19,595 bases of DNA from the UHGV virus genome UHGV-0349066. The stretch is one strand, 5' to 3'. This document shows, in pieces, positions 5,515 through 14,919 of this stretch. This stretch comes from a virus. The translations under genes and the position numbers were made by a program. The notes beneath the pieces are model-generated. The model saw only the letters and a list, made by a program, of their open reading frames with translations. It ran no database searches and was not told where the DNA came from. Position 1 is the stretch's first letter; the number at the start of each line of letters is the position of its first letter.

Positions 5515-6362
5515 AATTGCCCTTCCTTCTTAATGTAATCTTCAACCAACTTATCAAACACGATTTTTATTTTCTCGCGTTCTTCTTCACCCAATTCACC
5601 AGAACAGGTTAGCCCATTTATCTTCCCGTACCGTAATTCCAACACATACTTCAACCGATGACGTAAGGCTTGTTCAAAATGCGTCGGGATATAGATCGGT
5701 TCGAAGTTGTGTAATAAAGTAAAATTGTCTTCGGTGTGTTTAGGGGGTTCGAATTTTACTTTATCTAAGATAGTAAGCCAACGGTGTCTGTCGACTAACC
5801 GATCGTCCCAATATACCGGTTTTGTCTTAGAGGGAGTAAGTGTATTGTAGTTACTGGAATCAGAGACACGGAAATTTGCCGTGACATAAGTCTTCGAGAG
5901 TAACGAGAGAAGACAAATCGTGCCTTCTTCAGGGTAGCTTAAAAGCTCCCCGAGTATGTCTTTAGCTTTCTTGAAGTAGTCTCTAATATAGTCTTCAGCA
6001 ATTGGCTGAATTTCTACTTCTATAGCGCTAATTTGAGGTCCGTCTATCCGTAAAGGAAATTTTAGCTCAGCTTTATATTGCCTATCCGACGTATAAGCGC
6101 GTGTAACAATAGGGTACGTAACAGGCTTAGCTAAATGACGATATTCATCATCTCTAATGACTGAGTAACGTCCAAACCCACCTTTATTCGATTTTGAAAA
6201 AGCGTAAAGGTCTTTTAGATACTCCAGATACTGGCCATCGGTCATTTCATCGGTATTAAATTCACGAATATAAAGTCGTTCAACAAATCCCTTTGTTTGT
6301 TCGTAGTAATAACTGGGGTCCCTATTTGCTAGAATGTGCGGGAGATAATACGGGTGTGGCAT
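5511..6362 (-). CDS. hypothetical protein (283 aa); first gene after terminator and promoter-like motif
   Basis: ATG at 6362 with AAAGGAGG 5 nt upstream; preceded by hairpin and TCAGATATATATTACCTAGG motif. Confidence 0.7.
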   Translation of the reverse strand: MPHPYYLPHILANRDPSYYYEQTKGFVERLYIREFNTDEMTDGQYLEYLKDLYAFSKSNKGGFGRYSVIRDDEYRHLAKPVTYPIVTRAYTSDRQYKAELKFPLRIDGPQISAIEVEIQPIAEDYIRDYFKKAKDILGELLSYPEEGTICLLSLLSKTYVTANFRVSDSSNYNTLTPSKTKPVYWDDRLVDRHRWLTILDKVKFEPPKHTEDNFTLLHNFEPIYIPTHFEQALRHRLKYVLELRYGKINGLTCSGELGEEEREKIKIVFDKLVEDYIKKEGQL

Positions 6363-6440: not shown

Positions 6441-6481
6441 ATAAAAAAAAGAAAGGTAGTAGGGGCTTAGCCCCTACTACC
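6435..6481 (-). terminator. rho-independent terminator ending the fibre/adhesin gene block
   Basis: 12-bp stem GGTAGTAGGGGC / GCCCCTACTACC (6455-6466 / 6470-6481), loop TTA, followed on the minus strand by TTTCTTTTTTTTATTTTTT. Confidence 0.8.
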
Positions 6482-6487
6482 TAAAAA

Positions 6488-7108
6488 TTATTTCATTCCG
6501 TTCTGAGAAAGCGTTGTCCCTGTAAGATGCTTAATAACGATCTTAACAGGTAAATTACTATTCTCGTATTGTACTTCGGTTTCAGACAAATCGGTGATAT
6601 CGATAACTTTAGAGGGTAACTTCGCTAAAACAACACGAATGGTGTGGGTTATTGTACCCGCTGTGGTTTTTGTACCACTAACGTAGAAGTACGCATCAAT
6701 AATACCACCATCTGCTGCCAGGTAAACCAATTTATTTTCCAACAGACACTGGCTATAAATTGACACTCCAGATAATTGCGTAACACCCAGCCTGTTATTA
6801 ACGTCAACCGTTGTTTTGCAGATTACCGCACCACCTGTCAACGTTTTTTCTACCACCATATTTCCCGATAAGGTTTTTGCATCCATTTTTGGTATAATCG
6901 GATGAGCGCCGTCAACAAACAACCCATCGTTGTTAGACTTAAGGATGTTATTCGCCGACGGACTCACTGTAACCTCGGTACCCCCTAATTTCTCAATCGG
7001 GAGTTGGTATTCAGTTTGTTCCTTAGACGCTAAGACTACTACACCCGTGATGTCTTCTGAAAGTGTCTCCAGTTCATGAATGCGCACCTTTCCTACCAGT
7101 TCAGCCAC
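6488..7108 (-). CDS. short fibre-like protein sharing the N-terminal anchor domain of the long tail fibre (206 aa)
   Basis: GTG start at 7108 with GGAGGT 5 nt upstream; N-terminus MAELVGKVRIHELETLSEDITGVVVLASKEQTEYQLPIEKL aligns with the long-fibre N-terminus MAKAVKKIRLHDLRPYTGDIGEGVLLFSKDERDYQLPVREI. Confidence 0.7.
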   Translation of the reverse strand: MAELVGKVRIHELETLSEDITGVVVLASKEQTEYQLPIEKLGGTEVTVSPSANNILKSNNDGLFVDGAHPIIPKMDAKTLSGNMVVEKTLTGGAVICKTTVDVNNRLGVTQLSGVSIYSQCLLENKLVYLAADGGIIDAYFYVSGTKTTAGTITHTIRVVLAKLPSKVIDITDLSETEVQYENSNLPVKIVIKHLTGTTLSQNGMK

Positions 7109-7110
7109 TA

Positions 7111-7623
7111 TTAACCTCCAAAGGTTAAGACACGGTTATCTGCGGTAACGATTAAATCGTTGTCTTTTACTACAGCGGCTTCTTCATCGTTACCGAAAAC
7201 CAGAACGGAGAATTGGCCTTTATAACCTAACGAGTTGGGTGAAACCTGTAACGTTACAGCGTCTTTCCCCACGGTAAATGAATCGTCCTGAAGATCTTCG
7301 GGTTGCAGGTTACTGCCACAGGCTGCGTTAATCGCGTCGATTAAATCGTGTGTGCTAAACCCCTCACCAGTTACTTGCACCAGAATAGGTTGCTGGTTTA
7401 ACCAACGTTCTGCGGTTAAACGGTTGTAATAGATTTGTAACGTTCTGTTACCGGGACGTTTTATCTTTACAACAGCAGTGGTGTCACGATCCATTTCGTT
7501 ACTGGTCTTTACGTCGCTGACTTCAACCTCGTTCTCTTGCAAGTCGAGCTGGAGGTCATGGTTAACCAGTGAAATAACCATGTTAAGTGAAGTTAACGAC
7601 AAATCTGGCGTGAATTGTTCCAC
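7111..7623 (-). CDS. hypothetical fibre-associated protein, paralog of the 13829..14389 product (170 aa)
   Basis: GTG start at 7623 with AGGAGG upstream; shares motifs PDLSL, VNHD and CGSNLQPEDL with the other paralog (FCGTNLQPEDL). Confidence 0.7.
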   Translation of the reverse strand: MEQFTPDLSLTSLNMVISLVNHDLQLDLQENEVEVSDVKTSNEMDRDTTAVVKIKRPGNRTLQIYYNRLTAERWLNQQPILVQVTGEGFSTHDLIDAINAACGSNLQPEDLQDDSFTVGKDAVTLQVSPNSLGYKGQFSVLVFGNDEEAAVVKDNDLIVTADNRVLTFGG

Positions 7624-7722: not shown

Positions 7723-8166
7723 TTAACTGATTTTGAAATCTCTTAACGTACCAGTTGATTTCATCACGTTTTGGAACGCGGCACTAATGTTGTTGGTCCA
7801 GTAATAATGTTGACCATTAATAACCTGTTGATAAGTCAACGTACAAGTATTACCACCCAGGTTTACAGTAATGTTAGAAGCTCTCCCACCTTGTAAGTAA
7901 ACCGCTAAAGTAGGCTTTGCGTTGGTAAATATCGTCGTTAACTGTAACTCGATACCTACTAAAGTTCCCACCCCGCAGTTACCCGCGTTTTGAATGGTCC
8001 CCTGATTTTTCTGGTTTAACGGCCAGTTTGGTCCTACTGCACCCCATTTATTACCTAAGGAATCGCTATATGCGGCAGTTGCAATTTTACAGCCCATTGA
8101 TCGTCCCACCATTTGACTCATCATAAAAGGTCTACCCAATCCTAATTTACTACCCGCAGCGCTCAT
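7723..8166 (-). CDS. gp38-like adhesin paralog with divergent C-terminal domain; N-terminus apparently disrupted (likely extends to ATG at 8225 across a frameshift)
   Basis: Minimal ORF from ATG 8166. The in-frame sequence upstream back to the stop of the preceding gene encodes VDGVASGWVGSSARNETGEQW, homologous to the N-terminus of the 8242..9024 product; AAGGAGG plus ATG at 8225..8223 is in another frame, separated by a G4 run. Confidence 0.55.
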   Translation of the reverse strand: MSAAGSKLGLGRPFMMSQMVGRSMGCKIATAAYSDSLGNKWGAVGPNWPLNQKNQGTIQNAGNCGVGTLVGIELQLTTIFTNAKPTLAVYLQGGRASNITVNLGGNTCTLTYQQVINGQHYYWTNNISAAFQNVMKSTGTLRDFKIS

Positions 8167-8241
8167 CCATTGTTCGCCCGTTTCATTCCTAGCTGAAGAT
8201 CCGACCCATCCTGACGCTACCCCATCTACCCTCCTTTTTAA

Positions 8242-9024
8242 TTAAACACGTGAACCGTATATTGCACCTACTGCGTCCCATCTTGGCGCATTACCAGTAA
8301 CAGCTTTACCAGCTGCTCCGCCGTTATATTCTGTACCGTTACCATGAGTATTACATCTTCCTCCAGCAGCACCGACATTACCACCCGAACCGCCTGTATA
8401 TGCACTAAGAGACCCCTCACCAACAGATCCTTTACCAGGAGCGGAAATAGTACCAGCAGTTGCACCGGAACTCATATGAGAGGAAGACCCGCCAGCACCG
8501 AATGGGCGACCACCGCCACCACCAAATATTAGTCTACCCCTGTTACCGCCACCACCGCCGCCACCGCCTCCGGCAATAGCGCCACGGTTGGTTATACGCA
8601 GTCTGTTTCCTATTCCGTTCTGTATTGCGGTTCCACCTGCACCGCCTGGTGAGTTAGAACCGCCGTTGCCTCCTCTGCCGTATACTGTAACCCCAGGATT
8701 GATAACGAGTGTAATGGAGGAGTTCGGTAGGTCGCCAGGGAACTCTAAACAAGGAACTCCGCTACTATAAGACACTAAATCCCCCGTAATAGTCACAACG
8801 ACAGCAGTAGAGCCTAAAGAACGTAAATAGTTAATAAGAGTATCCTTATTATAGCTATGGTTAGCACCAATAGAATAATGGACCTCTTTTGATTTTCCCG
8901 CCAATTGCGACATCCAGCCTGGAACCGGCACACCAAGTGTGCGCATCGCGCCAGACATCCATTCGTTACCAGCTTCAGCTTTTGCTGAAGAACCAATCCA
9001 ACCACCTACGCCGACAACTGCCAC
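8242..9024 (-). CDS. T2-type gp38-like tail-fibre tip adhesin, glycine-rich (260 aa)
   Basis: GTG start overlapping the fibre TAG stop (TAGTG) with GGGAGA Shine-Dalgarno. N-terminus MAVVGVGGWIGSSA...WMSQLAG and motifs ITGDLVSYS, YGRGGNGG, AIAGGGGGGGGG, GGGGGRPFGAGG match my recollection of T2/K3-type gp38 adhesins with glycine-rich motifs. Confidence 0.75.
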   Translation of the reverse strand: MAVVGVGGWIGSSAKAEAGNEWMSGAMRTLGVPVPGWMSQLAGKSKEVHYSIGANHSYNKDTLINYLRSLGSTAVVVTITGDLVSYSSGVPCLEFPGDLPNSSITLVINPGVTVYGRGGNGGSNSPGGAGGTAIQNGIGNRLRITNRGAIAGGGGGGGGGNRGRLIFGGGGGRPFGAGGSSSHMSSGATAGTISAPGKGSVGEGSLSAYTGGSGGNVGAAGGRCNTHGNGTEYNGGAAGKAVTGNAPRWDAVGAIYGSRV

Positions 9025-12000
9025 TAGGATCTCCCTTTGATTTCGTTAACCTCTTGACGCAACGCTTTCATACCCTCTACTAACAGCGCAATAACACCAT
9101 TGTAGTTTAGACGTAAACGTTTTTCGCCTGAAATGACATCATCATCCTCAGACACAAGTTCAGGTAACGCTTCTAATGCGTCTTGAGCAATTAGACCTAC
9201 AGAGGTCTGCCAGCCGTCGTCAGGATGCTGAATTTCGTACAAATAACCGGTTAGTAACTCTAACCGATCCAAAGCTTTATCTAGTTTCACCAGATTACGT
9301 TTGTTACGACGGTCAGAACGAATCTGTACGTCGTTAAACGAACCGTTACCGCTGCCAGTAACGTTATGACCAAAGGTTACTTGACCGTTAGCATTATTAA
9401 AATACAACGGACGTAGACCGTTCCAGGAACCCGTTGCAGCTTGACCGGCGTCGGTTACTAAGAAATAGGTATTGGCACCATCGTTACGTAACATAAAGCC
9501 GTAGTTGCCGTAAGCGATTCGAAAATCAGGGTACTTAGTGACCAATTTACCGTTAACGGTTAAATCGCCACCTATAGTACCGCCCCCTGACGGTAACGCA
9601 CCGATGTCACCAGCGTTAGGCTTGTTGTGTGTGCTGTAAATCAGATAGACGGTACCGTCTGTTAGTCCTGCGGGTTTATTAGCCGTATAACTTGGCGATG
9701 TATGAATCGTTACGTTGGCATTACTAGTGTAATCCCACTGAATAGTAACACCGGTGGCGTAATTACCTATTTCAACATAAATATCGTAAGTGTCACCAGA
9801 TGTATTCACCCATGCAAAATTAGCGAAGCCGACTGAAGTCAGTCGCCATAACGCACCAGTAATACCTTTTGGATTCCCATTTCCTGCACGCAGAACCAGC
9901 TCAGAGATACCTGCTTGATGTGGGGAACCAACGTTAAACCCTGCACCACCAATCATGCTTATGTAAACCACGGAACTGGCTTGCGGCATCGTTACAGTTG
10001 CCAGTTTGAACCATCCGGCACCACCATTAAAAGACACAGTTGTTGTGTTCGCGGCACCAACATTTCGTAAGAATTTTCTCTTATCTGGAATATCGGCACC
10101 ATTCTGTTTCTTCTGCAATGACCCACCGGCCAATTCTACAGTTTGGCCAAGATTTAAACTTTCAGCCGTTATTTCGATGTTTTTGGTGCCGTCAAATGCG
10201 ATACCGTTAATGGTACGCGCTGTCTGCAATTTTGTTGCAGTGGCCGCGTTTCCGGTGGTCGACTGATTGCCCGTTTGGTTTACGCCAGGTAAGTTGATGT
10301 CTTTAGTACCATCAAAAGCTACACCACCTATATTTCGCGCAGTCTGGAGCTTAGTCGCTGTCGCGGCATTCCCCGTAGTCGATTGGTTACCGGTTTGGTT
10401 CACACCGGGCAGACTAATGTCTTGCGAACCGTCAAAGTTAACACCACCGATCTTACGTGGCGTTTGTAACTTAGTAGCGGTCGCTGCATTACCTGTCGTA
10501 TTCTGGTTACCTTGCTGGTTAACCCCCGGTAAATTGATATCCCCAGTACCGTCGAAGGTAACGCCCCCGATTCTGCGAGCGGTTTTCAGTTTCGTCGCGG
10601 TAGCGGCGTTGCCAGTAGTATCCTGATTACCGGTGGTATTTACACCAGGAATACTATCACGGGCAGTATAAACTTGTGCCCAATCTGACCACGGCGCATC
10701 CGCTGTATCACGTCGACTACGAATATAAACGGGTGCGTGCGCACCACTCGTGCCCGACCAACCAATTAACAGCTCACCTTCACCTAATGCGGCAGAACCA
10801 CCCAAATGCAGCAAGTTACCATAAGCGGTCGGATAACCGTTATTGTAAACTTCGTACATCTGAATACCAGGCGTACCTTTGTTTGAACCGGTTAGTGCAG
10901 TAACCCGACCACGACCTACCAGGGTGTTGATATTGATGTCAGCAGAACCATCGAATCTTACACCGTTAATATTTCTGGCGGTTTGAAGTTTAGTGGCTGT
11001 ACCAGCATTACCCGTGGTGTTTTGATTGCCCTGTTGGTTAACACCTGGGAGGTTAATATCACCACTACCGTCGAAAGCGACTCCACCAATTCTACGTGCG
11101 GTCTTTAATTTCGTTGCGGTTGAAGCATTGCCTGTTAACTCGCCTGCTAACCCTTTTGCAAAGGTCTGTTTTTCTGCCCAGGTGTGTGCTGCATTCAATA
11201 CAGGCATCTGTCGTGGTGTAATCGTACGACTACCTTTCTCACCAGCGATACGTACTGCAAAGAATCGATAGTTGGCAGTAGACACCGTACTACGCCAAAC
11301 CAACATACTCCGGCCTGATGTAGCGCCATCTGATGGACCAACCAGAATGCTAACTAGGTTACCGTCAATAACACCCCAATCCATTCCCGTAGGAATGTTT
11401 TTCATGGTGTTAAGCGGCGTACAGATTAACTCACCCGGTTTAAAGTCATAGGTTTGCCAGTCTAAAGGATCAACATTCGCACGTTCACCGCCGATACCTA
11501 ATACCAGCGGAAGCGAATACGATGTGAAAACCTCACGCCAATCGCTCCAAGCGTTACCCGTACGGATACGTTGAAATTTACGACCTTTAGTTTCTGTACC
11601 CGTACCGTAAGTAGTATAATTCTGTTCGACCCCTGTACCGTCTAAGCGTAAGGTAACTTCACAAACGCCTAATATGGTTTCACCAGAAGAACCGGTAAGT
11701 GGACCGTTAGTTGCTTCACCAGTGACACTGAAACGTCCCGGTTTAACGAGATCGTTAAAATTGGCTTTAAAGAAAGCACCGTCAGTCTGATAACCAACCT
11801 GAATCCAATCTTCCCATTGCGGGTTTGATGAATCCCATGTTGCGGTCAAACCACGAACATACATCGTACCACGACGTGTGGTGTATCGTTGCAACCGTCC
11901 GAAAAGACCACCTTCCATTACTTCTAGTACGCCTTGCGCGCCACCACCTTCTTCAGGGTAATGTCTGCTAAAAACAGCCAGCGAACTGCTTGAGTTTCGC

Positions 12001-13625
12001 CAGTTACCCATATGCTCAGCGCCACCCAAACTGTTCAAGTCTATAGCGGTAGATAATGGACGTACACCAGTAGTTACCATTCTCCACGGTGACCAGGGTC
12101 CATTGGCACCATTCCACTCGCCACTCAGCATACGGTTGTACACGTTACCATTACGACAGGTAAAACGCTGTGCGCCACTGTAATTACCGGCTTTATACAC
12201 TTCCAGATAACCGACTGCACCGTCTTCTGGGAAATGTTTTGCCATCGACGCATTGGTTGACGTCGACTTAGCCCACGTTCCTGTGTAATTGGCATCTGGA
12301 GCAAATGTGTTAATATCAGCATCTACAGGCATTTCGCCACGGAAACGCAGATAAGTGTCAGGAGACAGACCGATATTGCGAGCAAACGTTTCTTTATCTG
12401 GGATATCAGCGCCGTTAGAGTTTTTCTGTAACGCGCTATTCGCTTTATCTACAGTGGCTTTTAATCCCAAGAAATTGATGATATCCGCAGTTGACCCTTT
12501 CGCTAACAAGGATCTGGCCGTTTCTGTAAAATCCGTTAATCCGACTTTATTACTGCCAGTGAAATACATGAGTTTATTTGCCGCTGTGGTGACTGCGGCA
12601 ATGGCGGTGAGCAACGGACTGAGGGGTTGTTTCTGCGCAAGTTCCCCAGTAATCGTTGTTGCGAAGTTAGGGTCATTACCTAACGCCTCAGCTAATTCCG
12701 CTAAGGTATTTAACGTCTCGGGTGAAGAACCAACCAGTTCCGCAATCGCGTCACGCACCCAGGCCGTTGTGGAAATACTCGTGTCGTTTGAATCTTTCGG
12801 GGGTGTTGGGGATGACGGTTTACCCGTAAAATTCGGCGAATGTTTATTGGCTTTTAACTGTAATTCGTCATTCAGCTGTTTAACCGTGGACGGTGTGGCA
12901 GCCTCAGTCACGGATTCGCTAGTCAGCGTATCGTTAAGTTTAACGATACCTTTACCGGTTGTACTAGCGTCGATTAAGCCCTGCGCAGCGATTTTCTCCG
13001 CACGTAAGGCAGCTGACTCCGAACGTGTTGCTGCGCCCTCTGAACTTTCTTTATCTTTCGCGACCTGTGCAGCAATCTTCTCCACTGCGCCCTTACTGGC
13101 CTCAACTGAAGCCGCAGTATTCTCGACACCGGTAGCCGTCTGTTGGACTTGTCCGGCCTGTTGCGTAACCGTTTCTGCTTTCTTAGTTACATCAGCCGCT
13201 GCAGCCGTCACCGATTGTTCGCTTGTGGCGACAGCTTGAGCTTTCTCATTTACCGACTGTAATACAGTATCTACGGCAGTTTTCGCGGCTAAAACTTCAG
13301 CGTGTTTTTTGTTAACCTCAGCAGTTTTAGTGGCAACGGTTCCCGCTTGCTCGCTAACGGTGGAAGCTAACGTGTCAGTTTGTTGCTTCGCTGTTTCTGC
13401 TAAGTCTTTTGCTTGTGTGGCTTCTGTTGCAGACTGTTGTGATTTGGCCGCAGCCGTTTGTGCGTCAGCAACCGCGTTTCTGACGGTGTCAATATCCGCA
13501 ACAATCTCGCGGACAGGTAACTGATAATCCCTTTCGTCTTTCGAAAAAAGTAAAACGCCTTCACCGATATCCCCGGTGTATGGACGTAAATCGTGTAAAC
13601 GAATTTTCTTTACCGCTTTAGCCAT
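9024..13625 (-). CDS. long (L-shaped-type) tail fibre protein with C-terminal intramolecular chaperone / autoproteolytic domain (1533 aa)
   Basis: ATG at 13625; Ala-rich coiled-coil stalk; fibre motifs TLNTLAELAEALGNDPNFATT; 40-aa tandem repeats (GNAATATKLQTAR..FDG..DINLPGVNQ); C-terminal SDRRNKRNLVKLDKALDRLELLTGYLYEIQ...GLIAQDALEALPELV...NYNGVIALLVEGMKALRQEV typical of peptidase-S74-type chaperone domains. Confidence 0.9.
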   Translation of the reverse strand: MAKAVKKIRLHDLRPYTGDIGEGVLLFSKDERDYQLPVREIVADIDTVRNAVADAQTAAAKSQQSATEATQAKDLAETAKQQTDTLASTVSEQAGTVATKTAEVNKKHAEVLAAKTAVDTVLQSVNEKAQAVATSEQSVTAAAADVTKKAETVTQQAGQVQQTATGVENTAASVEASKGAVEKIAAQVAKDKESSEGAATRSESAALRAEKIAAQGLIDASTTGKGIVKLNDTLTSESVTEAATPSTVKQLNDELQLKANKHSPNFTGKPSSPTPPKDSNDTSISTTAWVRDAIAELVGSSPETLNTLAELAEALGNDPNFATTITGELAQKQPLSPLLTAIAAVTTAANKLMYFTGSNKVGLTDFTETARSLLAKGSTADIINFLGLKATVDKANSALQKNSNGADIPDKETFARNIGLSPDTYLRFRGEMPVDADINTFAPDANYTGTWAKSTSTNASMAKHFPEDGAVGYLEVYKAGNYSGAQRFTCRNGNVYNRMLSGEWNGANGPWSPWRMVTTGVRPLSTAIDLNSLGGAEHMGNWRNSSSSLAVFSRHYPEEGGGAQGVLEVMEGGLFGRLQRYTTRRGTMYVRGLTATWDSSNPQWEDWIQVGYQTDGAFFKANFNDLVKPGRFSVTGEATNGPLTGSSGETILGVCEVTLRLDGTGVEQNYTTYGTGTETKGRKFQRIRTGNAWSDWREVFTSYSLPLVLGIGGERANVDPLDWQTYDFKPGELICTPLNTMKNIPTGMDWGVIDGNLVSILVGPSDGATSGRSMLVWRSTVSTANYRFFAVRIAGEKGSRTITPRQMPVLNAAHTWAEKQTFAKGLAGELTGNASTATKLKTARRIGGVAFDGSGDINLPGVNQQGNQNTTGNAGTATKLQTARNINGVRFDGSADININTLVGRGRVTALTGSNKGTPGIQMYEVYNNGYPTAYGNLLHLGGSAALGEGELLIGWSGTSGAHAPVYIRSRRDTADAPWSDWAQVYTARDSIPGVNTTGNQDTTGNAATATKLKTARRIGGVTFDGTGDINLPGVNQQGNQNTTGNAATATKLQTPRKIGGVNFDGSQDISLPGVNQTGNQSTTGNAATATKLQTARNIGGVAFDGTKDINLPGVNQTGNQSTTGNAATATKLQTARTINGIAFDGTKNIEITAESLNLGQTVELAGGSLQKKQNGADIPDKRKFLRNVGAANTTTVSFNGGAGWFKLATVTMPQASSVVYISMIGGAGFNVGSPHQAGISELVLRAGNGNPKGITGALWRLTSVGFANFAWVNTSGDTYDIYVEIGNYATGVTIQWDYTSNANVTIHTSPSYTANKPAGLTDGTVYLIYSTHNKPNAGDIGALPSGGGTIGGDLTVNGKLVTKYPDFRIAYGNYGFMLRNDGANTYFLVTDAGQAATGSWNGLRPLYFNNANGQVTFGHNVTGSGNGSFNDVQIRSDRRNKRNLVKLDKALDRLELLTGYLYEIQHPDDGWQTSVGLIAQDALEALPELVSEDDDVISGEKRLRLNYNGVIALLVEGMKALRQEVNEIKGRS
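10134..10613 (-). repeat. four tandem ~120-bp coding repeats within the tail fibre gene (40-aa units GNAATATKLQTAR.IGGV.FDG..DINLPGVNQ.GNQ.TT)
   Basis: Protein residues about 1005-1164 show period-40 repeats; the DNA copies differ mainly at synonymous positions. The ORF track shows the repeat as mirrored plus-strand ORFs 10006..10266 and 10267..10626. Confidence 0.8.
10893..11132 (-). repeat. two further copies of the 120-bp fibre coding repeat
   Basis: Protein residues about 832-911 (GNASTATKLKTARRIGGVAFDGSGDINLPGVNQQGNQNTT, GNAGTATKLQTARNINGVRFDGSADININ...). Confidence 0.75.
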
Positions 13626-13828: not shown

Positions 13829-14389
13829 TCATGTAGCCGGGTTTTCTTCAGCTGTGTCGTCATCTGGAACCTCAAAGGTAAGAACAGCATCATCACCAAT
13901 ACAGAAGATCGCGTCATCTTCGTTTGCTAATGCTCGTTCGGTTGTATCGAATAACGTTACCATAAACGCATTCATCCACGCAGGAGAATCGTCAGCAACG
14001 TTAACAGCAATGGGTTCGTTACCTAAGGTGATATCTGCAGCACGTAAATCTTCGGGTTGTAAGTTCGTTCCGCAGAATTCATTTACAACACCTAAAATGT
14101 CACGAAGGTTGTCTTCGGTACCATCTAACGAAATCAAAATAGGTTCAGACGCTAACACTTCGTCCGCATCCAAACGGTCGTAATAAACAACCACAGAAGC
14201 ACCATCAGGTTTCCTGATTTTTGTAATCTCTGTCAGTGTGTTACGACGCGAAGTGGTCGGGGACGGGTTTGCCATAGTGTTGCTAATACGGATTTCGTTT
14301 AGAGACAACCGTGAACCGTTATCGTGGTTGATTAAAGCGACCACTAATTCGGCTGAGGCCAGACTTAAATCAGGTACGTAAGTAGTCAC
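13829..14389 (-). CDS. hypothetical fibre-associated protein, paralog of the 7111..7623 product (186 aa; start refined)
   Basis: GTG at 14389 with GGGAGG 5 nt upstream; start position matches the paralog start (MTTYVPDLSL vs MEQFTPDLSL). The ORF-track N-terminal extension to 14458 is the translated terminator hairpin and T-run. Confidence 0.7.
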   Translation of the reverse strand: MTTYVPDLSLASAELVVALINHDNGSRLSLNEIRISNTMANPSPTTSRRNTLTEITKIRKPDGASVVVYYDRLDADEVLASEPILISLDGTEDNLRDILGVVNEFCGTNLQPEDLRAADITLGNEPIAVNVADDSPAWMNAFMVTLFDTTERALANEDDAIFCIGDDAVLTFEVPDDDTAEENPAT

Positions 14390-14404
14390 TAAAACCTCCC
14401 AGAT

Positions 14405-14450
14405 CAAAAAAAAAATAAAAACACCTACCGCCCATAGAATCGGGCGGTAG
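14405..14450 (-). terminator. rho-independent terminator, 6 nt upstream of the ribosome-binding site of the 13829..14389 gene
   Basis: 9-bp GC-rich stem CTACCGCCC / GGGCGGTAG (14425-14433 / 14442-14450), 8-nt loop, then GTGTTTTTATTTTTTTTTT on the minus strand. Confidence 0.75.
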
Positions 14451-14484
14451 GCAGTCATTTTACAGCTAAAAATCGAAGTAGTTA

Positions 14485-14919
14485 CTACGCTTTAACGGAC
14501 TTTGCTAGATTGATATCAAAGAATCGGATTTCTAAAATTTTATCGTTGCGATACATTATGCGTGGTTTTAGATCTACGTAACCATGCTCAATAATAAAGT
14601 TTCGAACATCGTCACCGTACACACCACCCGGACAAAACTCACCATAAACTTCAACGTTATTATCGTCCGCTGTCACCATGATGTCAGTAAGATGGCCACC
14701 AGAAAATTCAATTCTGACAGTTTTTGGAAAGTCAGTATTGAATTCTGTAGGATCTTTAATAGCCTCACAAACGCTCATGTGATGTCTTAGTAGGCGCGCA
14801 AACGCTGCGGAGGGATTTTCAGGATCGTAGAAATCCGAACGAGGTAATGTCAATAATAACCCTTTAACTTTAATATCCTGTCTTTCAGGTATCACCGTTA
14901 TTTCTGCTTTTACTTTCAT
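14485..14919 (-). CDS. hypothetical protein (144 aa; start refined)
   Basis: ATG at 14919 overlapping the TGA of the upstream gene (ATGA), GGAGAA Shine-Dalgarno; ORF-track start at 14937 lies inside the upstream gene. Confidence 0.6.
   Translation of the reverse strand: MKVKAEITVIPERQDIKVKGLLLTLPRSDFYDPENPSAAFARLLRHHMSVCEAIKDPTEFNTDFPKTVRIEFSGGHLTDIMVTADDNNVEVYGEFCPGGVYGDDVRNFIIEHGYVDLKPRIMYRNDKILEIRFFDINLAKSVKA

Follow-up and report, generated by a model that had tools for sequence, protein, structure and literature searches.

A jumbo-phage-type tail fibre with a predicted self-removing S74 chaperone and an adjoining gp38 adhesin gene

The distal long tail fibre of the T2/S16 type pairs gp37, which ends in an intramolecular chaperone, with the tip adhesin gp38 (PDB 6f45; Dunne et al. 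2018, cited in PMC7917993). The cleavage reported for S16 gp37, at DLNVS^SDRRIKK, uncovers the dock for gp38, and the T2-like fPS phages carry a predicted site at DVYIR^SDGRLKI (PMC7917993). In T5 pb1 (4uw8) and the K1F endosialidase (3gw6), a C-terminal S74 chaperone with a serine and a lysine at +5 is likewise released by autoproteolysis after the trimer has folded. The catalytic pair of pb1 is Ser1264/Lys1269, and the S1264A change blocks cleavage (PMC4690869). In these two, however, cleavage uncovers a domain that itself binds the receptor or acts as the enzyme, without docking of an adhesin. The tail fibres of the P1 S, Mu S, P2 H, lambda Stf and R-type pyocin group share shaft modules with the fibre studied here (Phage_fiber_2, NGADIPDK junctions, 40-aa repeats, Gp34_trimer and knobs), but their receptor-binding tip lacks S74 and is folded by a separate Tfa/U chaperone.

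The window analysed here is a 19,595-nt stretch of the virus genome UHGV-0349066, whose backbone belongs to a Seoul-like jumbo phage, carried in the form of a "plasmid" of ~220 kb. The backbone is syntenic with the cultured Seoulvirus EC001. Database entries for related replicons class them as plasmids and leave nearly every gene as "hypothetical"; no virion description is known for the element. Seoul-like jumbo phage genomes have been reported in isolate assemblies as persistent infections (preprint 10.1101/2024.12.31.630880).

The fibre gene occupies exactly the interval given by the first-pass annotation as one intact ORF (Table 1), in which all the peptides quoted there were found; its strand had not been stated. 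The precursor has a mass of 162.2 kDa and the predicted mature form (residues 1-1436) of 151.3 kDa. The gene is real: three related replicons carry an intact copy, and the codon differences to the Shigella copy (L003) amount to 73 synonymous and 10 non-synonymous ones; the fibre is under strong purifying selection. Antisense ORFs of 294, 119 and 86 aa within it lack a credible family match and were rejected as genes. For the fibre, gp38 and the neighbouring genes alike, the NCBIfam search was negative. A megablast search of the fibre against the phage collection returned a single 416-nt match, and the right flank none; that collection therefore holds no close cultured relative.

Table 1. Features of the fibre module, with window positions.
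Feature	Position	Strand	Details
Strong intrinsic terminator	6454..6482	minus	closes the fibre module; partner at 14422-14453
Second, short Gp38_N-type adhesin gene	7723..8225	minus	frameshifted in a G-tract (8219-8223) right after ATG
gp38 tip adhesin	8242..9024	minus	260 aa; PF05268, E 1.7e-69, plus Gp38_N (PF21721)
Long tail-fibre ORF	9024..13625	minus	1533 aa; PHROG tail-fibre families, best E 1e-259
Peptidase_S74 intramolecular chaperone, residues 1437-1533	9027..9317	minus	97 aa, 11.0 kDa
Distal tip, residues 1409-1436	9318..9401	minus	ends GNGSFNDVQIR; predicted gp38 docking strand
Gp34_trimer, residues 1342-1408	9402..9602	minus	YGNYGF...WNGLRPL; PF21446, E 1.2e-16
Second NGADIPDK junction (1175-1182) and globular domain, residues 1175-1341	9603..10103	minus	phrog_3299/phrog_21552
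40-aa repeat block 2, residues 1004-1163	10137..10616	minus	4 copies, starts 1004, 1044, 1084, 1124
Fourth knob-like segment, residues ~911-990	10656..10895	minus	WSDW at 979; sequence pattern alone
40-aa repeat block 1, residues 831-910	10896..11135	minus	2 copies, starts 831, 871
Beta-rich domain, type unassigned, residues 703-830	11136..11519	minus	AF2 strands, pLDDT 45-77
Three consecutive knob-like beta domains, residues ~440-702	11520..12308	minus	each closes with W[SE][DP]W..V
Side-fibre/collar motifs, residues 262-420	12366..12842	minus	Mu fibre S 5yvq, tail-collar fibre 9d93, 6v8i
Phage_fiber_2 repeat, residues 221-261	12843..12965	minus	PF03406, E 2.7e-10
Coiled-coil stalk, residues 46-215	12981..13490	minus	Ala/Thr/Val/Gln-rich; no proline
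N-terminal anchor, residues 1-42	13500..13625	minus	MA..KK.RLH[DE]L...G...GV.L.SK..[DE]Y
DUF7941 virion-protein gene, preceding the fibre	13829..14458	minus	

An S74-type chaperone at the fibre end had been proposed at first pass, with a domain search named beforehand as the test able to refute it. The Pfam search was positive above the gathering score: Peptidase_S74 (PF13884) aligns with residues 1437-1491 over profile positions 1-57 of 58 (40.6 bits versus a cutoff of 22; E 3.1e-10). The domain forms the extreme C-terminus of the ORF, where S74 chaperones of about 100-150 aa sit in trimeric fibres and spikes, and its 97 aa are close to the ~100 residues given at first pass. The SD motif anticipated near residue 1437 is also present, as SDRRNK begins at that residue. 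Ser1437 (codon 9315-9317) and Lys1442 (codon 9300-9302) reproduce the +5 spacing of Ser1264/Lys1269 in T5 pb1, and every intact homologue keeps SD[KR]RNKRN, irrespective of the type of fibre body upstream. By analogy, self-cleavage of the chaperone is predicted at R1436^S1437. Known chaperones of this class have a mixed alpha/beta fold with a C-terminal trimeric helix, and a folding-sensor Arg/Asp upstream. An AF2 model of the monomer (residues 1340-1533) was discarded as evidence, since its mean pLDDT is 49.8 and a Foldseek search of the PDB yielded no match under E 0.5, with 4uw8 and 3gw6 at E > 2; in the chaperone part the model has an H-E-E-H-E-E order followed by a long helix (pLDDT 52-82).

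The first-pass annotation had named T5 pb1 and K1F as comparators. The chaperone is indeed common to them at the profile level, but no significant direct sequence match to the fibre C-terminus was found in either, nor a significant fold match. The closest system is instead the T2/S16 gp37 plus gp38 pair, because a complete gp38 gene directly follows the fibre gene. The last 114 residues of the fibre align end to end with S16 gp37 (PDB 6f45; E 8.5e-12), SDRR.K included, and a match to the S16 gp37 tip construct (6f45_A; E 4e-13) spans residues 1378-1531. The window counterpart of the S16 and fPS cleavage motifs is DVQIR^SDRRNK. The likeness to T2/S16 comprises a Gp34_trimer-like distal domain, a tip strand of the form ...IR^SD.R.K, a ~100-aa S74 chaperone and an adjoining gp38 in which a Gp38_N domain for docking is joined to a polyglycine-rich one for the receptor.

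Other features set the locus apart from T2/S16. The fibre is a single 1533-aa chain and not a gp34/35/36/37 assembly; its proximal end is a Seoul-like anchor followed by a coiled coil, its shaft is made of P1 S, Mu S, P2 and lambda-Stf-type modules, and the tip ahead of the last strand is only weakly similar to S16. The genome is that of a jumbo-phage relative and not of a T-even phage. The T-even long tail fibre class (gp34-gp35-gp36-gp37 with hinge connectors) was rejected on the single chain; no gp35/gp36-like gene was present among the neighbouring genes tested.

The pairing of such a fibre with an adhesin recurs on other backbones. The Stx phage P13374 (Oslovirus, ORF65/ORF66) and the SSU5-like phage-plasmid pAMPD1 have the same GNGSFNDV[QY]IR^SD junction, a 96-97 aa S74 chaperone and, immediately downstream, a Gp38_N adhesin. 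Their fibre bodies differ, with collagen repeats or shorter shafts, and the adhesin of P13374 is of the 170-aa short type, which corresponds to the frameshifted second gene of the window. In collagen-type E. coli prophage fibres the chaperone is ~80% identical to that of the window. Across six fibres from three backbones (window, L001, L002, L003, P13374 and pAMPD1), each followed by a Gp38_N adhesin, GNG[SN]FNDV[QY]IR^SD is essentially invariant. The gp38 of L001 is 97% identical to that of the window, beside a tip and chaperone merely 34% identical; therefore, we infer that the specificity between tip and adhesin rests on a very short conserved strand.

The gp38 gene, a context missed at first pass, starts at a GTG that overlaps the fibre TAG stop (TAGTG), with a Shine-Dalgarno sequence AGGGAG upstream. 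Residues 7-258 of its product match S16 gp38 (6f45_D) at E 9e-52, and all three of Trp 9, 22 and 37 are aligned to S16 Trp residues. In comparison with L003, its codon differences are 19 synonymous and 13 non-synonymous; set against the 73:10 of the fibre, this fits the expectation that the shaft is under constraint while the adhesin evolves fast. The window holds two adhesin types, the 260-aa polyglycine type and the 170-aa short type. No separate Tfa/U-type fibre chaperone gene was identified among the genes between the two terminators. The DUF7941 gene probably starts near codon 18-24 of its ORF, past the terminator.

The upstream part of the fibre has the modular architecture outlined at first pass. 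The anchor, then placed at residues 1-45, recurs (residues 1-42) in otherwise unrelated proteins, namely a 206-aa ORF of the window and a 153-aa ORF of L001 and L002; the latter protein is homologous to MGA_125 of Seoulvirus EC001. The proposed coiled-coil stalk shows a hydrophobicity power of 135.9 at period 3.5 (shuffle mean 8.3), a value reached in 0/1000 shuffles, and a weak SMC-like match covers residues 44-257. Phage_fiber_2 scores 40.1 bits against a curated Pfam cutoff of 22. The conserved side-fibre motifs are widely shared, match PDB entries (Table 1) and end in the junction motif NGADIPDK (404-411). A scan of the contigs of species-representative genomes with residues 1-420 found no second locus with the anchor or the coiled coil and recovered only the common motifs of residues 182-420.

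The knob-like domains with paired Trp were likewise found, although their number had been put at three: four W[SE][DP]W segments are present, with Trp pairs at 511, 604, 693 and 979. The three consecutive ones are modelled with a pLDDT of ~80-89. The AF2 model of the region (431-830, pLDDT 74.8) matches the R1 pyocin fibre 6cl5 in Foldseek (E 2e-5, probability 1.0), though with a TM of only 0.22; other matches include phage receptor-binding proteins, and NCBI labels the homologues "pyocin knob domain-containing". The Pfam and NCBIfam searches gave no model matching the knobs, and PDB sequence searches with the knob and repeat regions gave nothing except the NGADIPDK junction. The fourth knob separates the two blocks of the period-40 repeats, which had also been predicted and number six copies, with 63-100% identity (mean 75%) across a 30-residue core; TRF found no DNA tandem array beneath them.

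Two globular regions, ~703-830 and ~1175-1341, were missing from the first-pass annotation. For residues 703-830, neither a profile match nor a PDB sequence match was obtained. The best stretches of phrog_3299 and phrog_21552 cover residues 1175-1362, and Mu fibre S (8ju3) matches the junction at 1175-1182. The T4 gp34/gp37-like distal motif corresponds to Gp34_trimer, which scores 61.6 bits against a curated cutoff of 27 and also matches Mu S (5yvq) and T4 gp34 (4uxe). After the same domain, P0032 has a Tfa/U-type ending.

Starting from the domain identities, conserved motifs, gene linkage and purifying selection seen in the window, we consider it probable, at about 80%, that the locus encodes a fibre with a self-removing S74 chaperone and a docked gp38 adhesin, belonging to a Seoul-like jumbo phage. 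Residues 1-42 would anchor the single-chain fibre to the virion, and the shaft would consist of the coiled coil, the collar motifs, four knobs, six 40-aa repeats and Gp34_trimer. The 97-residue chaperone would nucleate trimerisation from the distal end. After correct folding of the tip, Ser1437, activated by Lys1442, would cleave the Arg1436-Ser1437 bond, and departure of the 11-kDa chaperone would expose GNGSFNDVQIR at the tip of the trimer. There gp38 most likely docks with its Trp-bearing N-terminal domain, as suggested by the gene linkage and the invariant pre-cleavage strand, whose docking role is taken from S16 (PMC7917993). The polyglycine-rich C-terminal domain of gp38 would then bind the host outer-membrane receptor. 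Cleavage, docking and gp38 as receptor binder are modelled on the S16, T2 and T5 precedents; since a complete gp38 adjoins the fibre gene, receptor binding would shift from the fibre tip to gp38.

The fibre tip might instead bind the receptor itself, as in T4 gp37 or T5 pb1, with gp38 acting as a non-virion folding chaperone of the T4 type. Some records do name gp38 homologues "distal long tail fiber assembly catalyst", and the knobs and globular domains could bind surface sugars. The gp38 of the window, however, matches PF05268 over its full length, and its S16 gp38 match (E 9e-52) takes in both the docking Trp and the polyglycine-rich domain. In addition, a chaperone is already part of the fibre, and the non-synonymous fraction is higher in gp38. 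We regard this alternative as quite unlikely, and the T4-type role was rejected on these grounds. Retention of the S74 domain on the mature fibre, as a non-cleaving relic that caps the C-terminus, would fit the low confidence of the chaperone fold model and the fact that cleavage is predicted. It is very improbable, as the serine and the lysine at +5 are kept in all intact homologues and in six cassette copies, and an uncleaved cap would occupy the gp38 docking surface described for S16 (PMC7917993).

That related replicons are deposited as plasmids with nearly all genes "hypothetical", and that the second adhesin gene is frameshifted, could also point to a decaying plasmid remnant, or to part of a tailocin-like particle, and not to the fibre of an infective phage. 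Strong purifying selection on the fibre, synteny with the cultured EC001 and the persistent infections reported for Seoul-like jumbo genomes (10.1101/2024.12.31.630880) leave this explanation with only a slight chance.

Under the preferred reading of a self-removing chaperone with a docked gp38, little is gained for the mechanism itself, as gp38 tip adhesins and fibre chaperones that cleave themselves off are both established; the value lies in the context, a T2/S16-type design in an uncultured jumbo-phage relative. The cassette of S74 chaperone and Gp38_N adhesin, with its invariant GNGSFNDVxIR^SD junction, moves between phage types, its carriers being T-even phages, Stx podoviruses, SSU5-like phage-plasmids and now Seoul-like jumbo genomes. 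The junction offers a practical landmark for the annotation of receptor-binding modules, for gp38-based host-range prediction and for the engineering of fibre chimeras. Seoul-like jumbo genomes with the cassette occur as "plasmids" in clinical isolate assemblies.

The cleaved tip might even be a universal socket for interchangeable Gp38_N adhesins, the 170-aa one being phase-variable through G4/G5 slippage; we hold this to be unlikely. If true, G4/G5 switching of the short adhesin would make the host range of a persistent jumbo phage phase-variable. The G-tract of this gene counts four G in the window and five in L001.

The interval assigned to the tail fibre coincides exactly with one minus-strand ORF of 1533 codons; when translated on the plus strand, the interval has stops throughout. 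All peptides quoted in the first-pass annotation were found in this ORF, and SDRRNK begins at residue 1437 (codon 9315-9317), as it had stated. This is a genuine gene and no chance ORF: it matches PHROG tail-fibre families (E down to 1e-259), is unbroken in three related replicons and differs from its copy in L003, a 221-kb Shigella flexneri contig, by 73 synonymous and only 10 non-synonymous codons. The long antisense ORFs within it lack family support. The full 1533-aa ORF is open in L003, where the public gene call is a 156-aa C-terminal fragment (P0002) alone.

Positions of fibre modules, adhesin genes and neighbouring features
Feature	Reference	Position	Strand	Source
Fibre ORF	window	9024-13625	-	
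Fibre ORF	L003	5870-10471		
Phage_fiber_2	fibre residues	221-261		Pfam
Gp34_trimer	fibre residues	1342-1408		Pfam
Peptidase_S74	fibre residues	1437-1491		Pfam
W[SE][DP]W knob motifs	fibre residues	511, 604, 693, 979		
NGADIPDK junction motifs	fibre residues	404, 1175		
Distal gp38, Krischvirus-like	window	8240-8698		
RefSeq gp38 start region	L001	10560-10760		
Second, short Gp38_N-type adhesin gene	window	7723-8225	-	
DUF7941/anchor pair loci	window	13829-14458, 7111-7623, 6488-7108	-	
DUF7941/anchor pair locus	L001	18445-19435		
DUF7941/anchor pair locus	L007	16958-17982		
Terminator hairpin in DUF7941 ORF	window	14422-14453	-	
Window-specific segments	window	5607-6343, 6541-7101, 14472-14916		

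Three Pfam domains were found in the fibre above curated cutoffs. The proposed N-terminal anchor is supported by the recurrence of the ~42 first residues on two otherwise unrelated proteins, a 206-aa ORF of the window and a 153-aa ORF of the related replicons L001 (from E. coli 98232) and L002; the latter ORF is homologous to MGA_125 of Seoulvirus EC001. The coiled-coil stalk also holds: residues 46-215 contain no proline, and their hydrophobicity power at period 3.5 (135.9) is far above that of shuffles (mean 8.3; 0 of 1000 as high). Within residues 1-420, species-representative genomes match only the side-fibre motifs at ~182-420, in prophage fibres of many phyla. Knob-like segments number four rather than the three claimed, and NCBI names homologues "pyocin knob domain-containing". 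An AF2 model of residues 431-830 (mean pLDDT 74.8) consists of small beta domains in succession. Its structural matches include the R1 pyocin fibre (6cl5, E 2e-5) and receptor-binding proteins of phages, though with a low global TM. The period-40 repeats were recovered as six 40-aa copies in two blocks (mean identity 75% across a 30-residue core); no DNA tandem array was detected beneath them. Globular regions at 703-830 and 1175-1341 and the NGADIPDK motifs, which match Mu fibre S, had not been listed before.

The proposed C-terminal chaperone is supported by its Peptidase_S74 match. An end-to-end alignment with the S16 gp37 construct of PDB 6f45 covers the final 114 residues (E 8.5e-12), SDRR.K included. 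In T5 pb1, the Thr1263-Ser1264 bond is cut, the serine being activated by Lys1269, and the S1264A mutation blocks cleavage (PMC4690869). The cleavage site is DLNVS^SDRRIKK in S16 and DVYIR^SDGRLKI in T2-like Yersinia phages (PMC7917993). The window fibre reads DVQIR^SDRRNK at the predicted cut, and Ser1437 and Lys1442 have the same +5 spacing as the pb1 pair. The predicted products are a mature fibre (1-1436) of 151.3 kDa and a 97-aa chaperone of 11.0 kDa. Homologues keep SD[KR]RNKRN whether it follows collagen repeats, 40-aa repeats or a Gp34_trimer domain; the chaperone is thus a portable module. A monomer model of the fibre C-terminus was poor (pLDDT 49.8), and a fold search on it gave no informative match.

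The key context missed by the first-pass annotation is the next gene, which encodes a complete gp38 tip adhesin (PF05268, E 1.7e-69, plus Gp38_N). The TAG stop of the fibre overlaps its GTG start (TAGTG), with a Shine-Dalgarno just upstream. This protein aligns with the S16 gp38 of the gp37-gp38 complex (E 9e-52), including three N-terminal tryptophans. Once the chaperone has left the S16 fibre, a hydrophobic tip is exposed, the docking surface of gp38 (PMC7917993). An S74-ending fibre directly followed by a Gp38_N adhesin is also found in L001, L002, L003, Stx phage P13374 and the SSU5-like plasmid pAMPD1, and in all these pairs an 11-residue strand, GNG[SN]FNDV[QY]IR, ends just before the scissile serine. 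In L001, gp38 is 97% identical to that of the window, yet tip and chaperone are 34% identical overall; the conserved strand would explain this pairing. Between the window and L003, the non-synonymous fraction is much higher in gp38 than in the fibre, as expected for a receptor-binding role.

The distal part of gp38 has 82-92% DNA identity to gp38 of Krischvirus (RB49, JSE, PaulHMueller), which suggests that this jumbo-phage lineage and T4-like phages have recently exchanged the adhesin. In L001, the RefSeq call appears to truncate gp38 at its start; beginning at a TTG further upstream yields MSVSATPGWIGSS... and restores a complete docking domain. Fibre and gp38 overlap in the window, whereas in L001 a hairpin, CAGTGAGGGGAACCCCTCACTG, lies between the two genes.

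We consider the following mechanism probable as a whole (about 0.8). The anchor would attach the fibre to the virion and the chaperone would start trimer folding at the distal end; Ser1437/Lys1442 would then cut R1436^S1437, the 11-kDa chaperone would depart, gp38 would dock onto the newly exposed strand, and its polyglycine-rich domain would bind an outer-membrane receptor. To the observed domain identities, motif conservation, gene linkage and selection, this reading adds cleavage, docking and receptor binding by precedent. Of the comparators originally named, T5 pb1 and K1F endosialidase do share the chaperone, but it is the only part that they have in common with this fibre. Judged from the adjoining gp38, the conserved tip strand and the gp38 variation, the closest known system is instead T2/S16 gp37-gp38. 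The original observation is confirmed and its interpretation supported, with gp38 as an important addition.

No nucleotide-close cultured phage was present in the phage collection searched. The window backbone shares ~86% identity with "plasmids" of ~220 kb from E. coli and Enterobacter ludwigii, the fibre module is 97% identical to the Shigella contig, and the one backbone protein tested has ~64% identity to Seoulvirus (SPN3US-like) jumbo phages. Among isolate assemblies, Seoul-like genomes have been reported as persistent infections (preprint, 10.1101/2024.12.31.630880). The ~220-kb replicons sharing this backbone (L001 to L004), which were submitted as E. coli, Shigella flexneri and E. ludwigii plasmids, carry nearly only "hypothetical" genes and three 1400-1700-aa ORFs; these distant kin of Seoulvirus are probably persistent jumbo phage genomes. 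The fibre module is flanked by two strong terminators. In Seoulvirus the syntenic locus is limited to DUF7941, an anchor protein of 161 aa and a tail protein of 1005 aa; the long fibre and gp38 therefore look like an acquired cassette onto which the lineage's own anchor was grafted.

A DUF7941 "virion structural protein" gene precedes each protein with the ~42-aa anchor, a recurring pair present twice in the window; the two may represent an adaptor and its fibre. In the DUF7941 ORF that precedes the long fibre, the 5' end as called contains a strong terminator hairpin, and alignment with the L001 homologue starts only at residue 23; translation probably begins at codon 18 or 24, on a TTG or GTG. 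Three segments are missing from L001 and the otherwise 97%-identical Shigella contig. They encode a 283-aa ORF without family, the short fibre-like, anchor-bearing 206-aa ORF, which matches phrog_33169 at its C-terminus, and a 150-aa ORF that weakly matches a head-maturation-protease PHROG.

The short adhesin gene directly 3' of gp38 has a strong Shine-Dalgarno and an ATG at 8225, followed by GGGG and TAG. With five G, L001 encodes an intact 170-aa protein; with four, the window and L003 are frameshifted past codon 2. A slippage switch, a pseudogene or a sequencing error in the homopolymer could account for this. Stx phages and SSU5-like plasmids carry intact homologues, as do some T4-like phages, where they stand in tandem with gp38.
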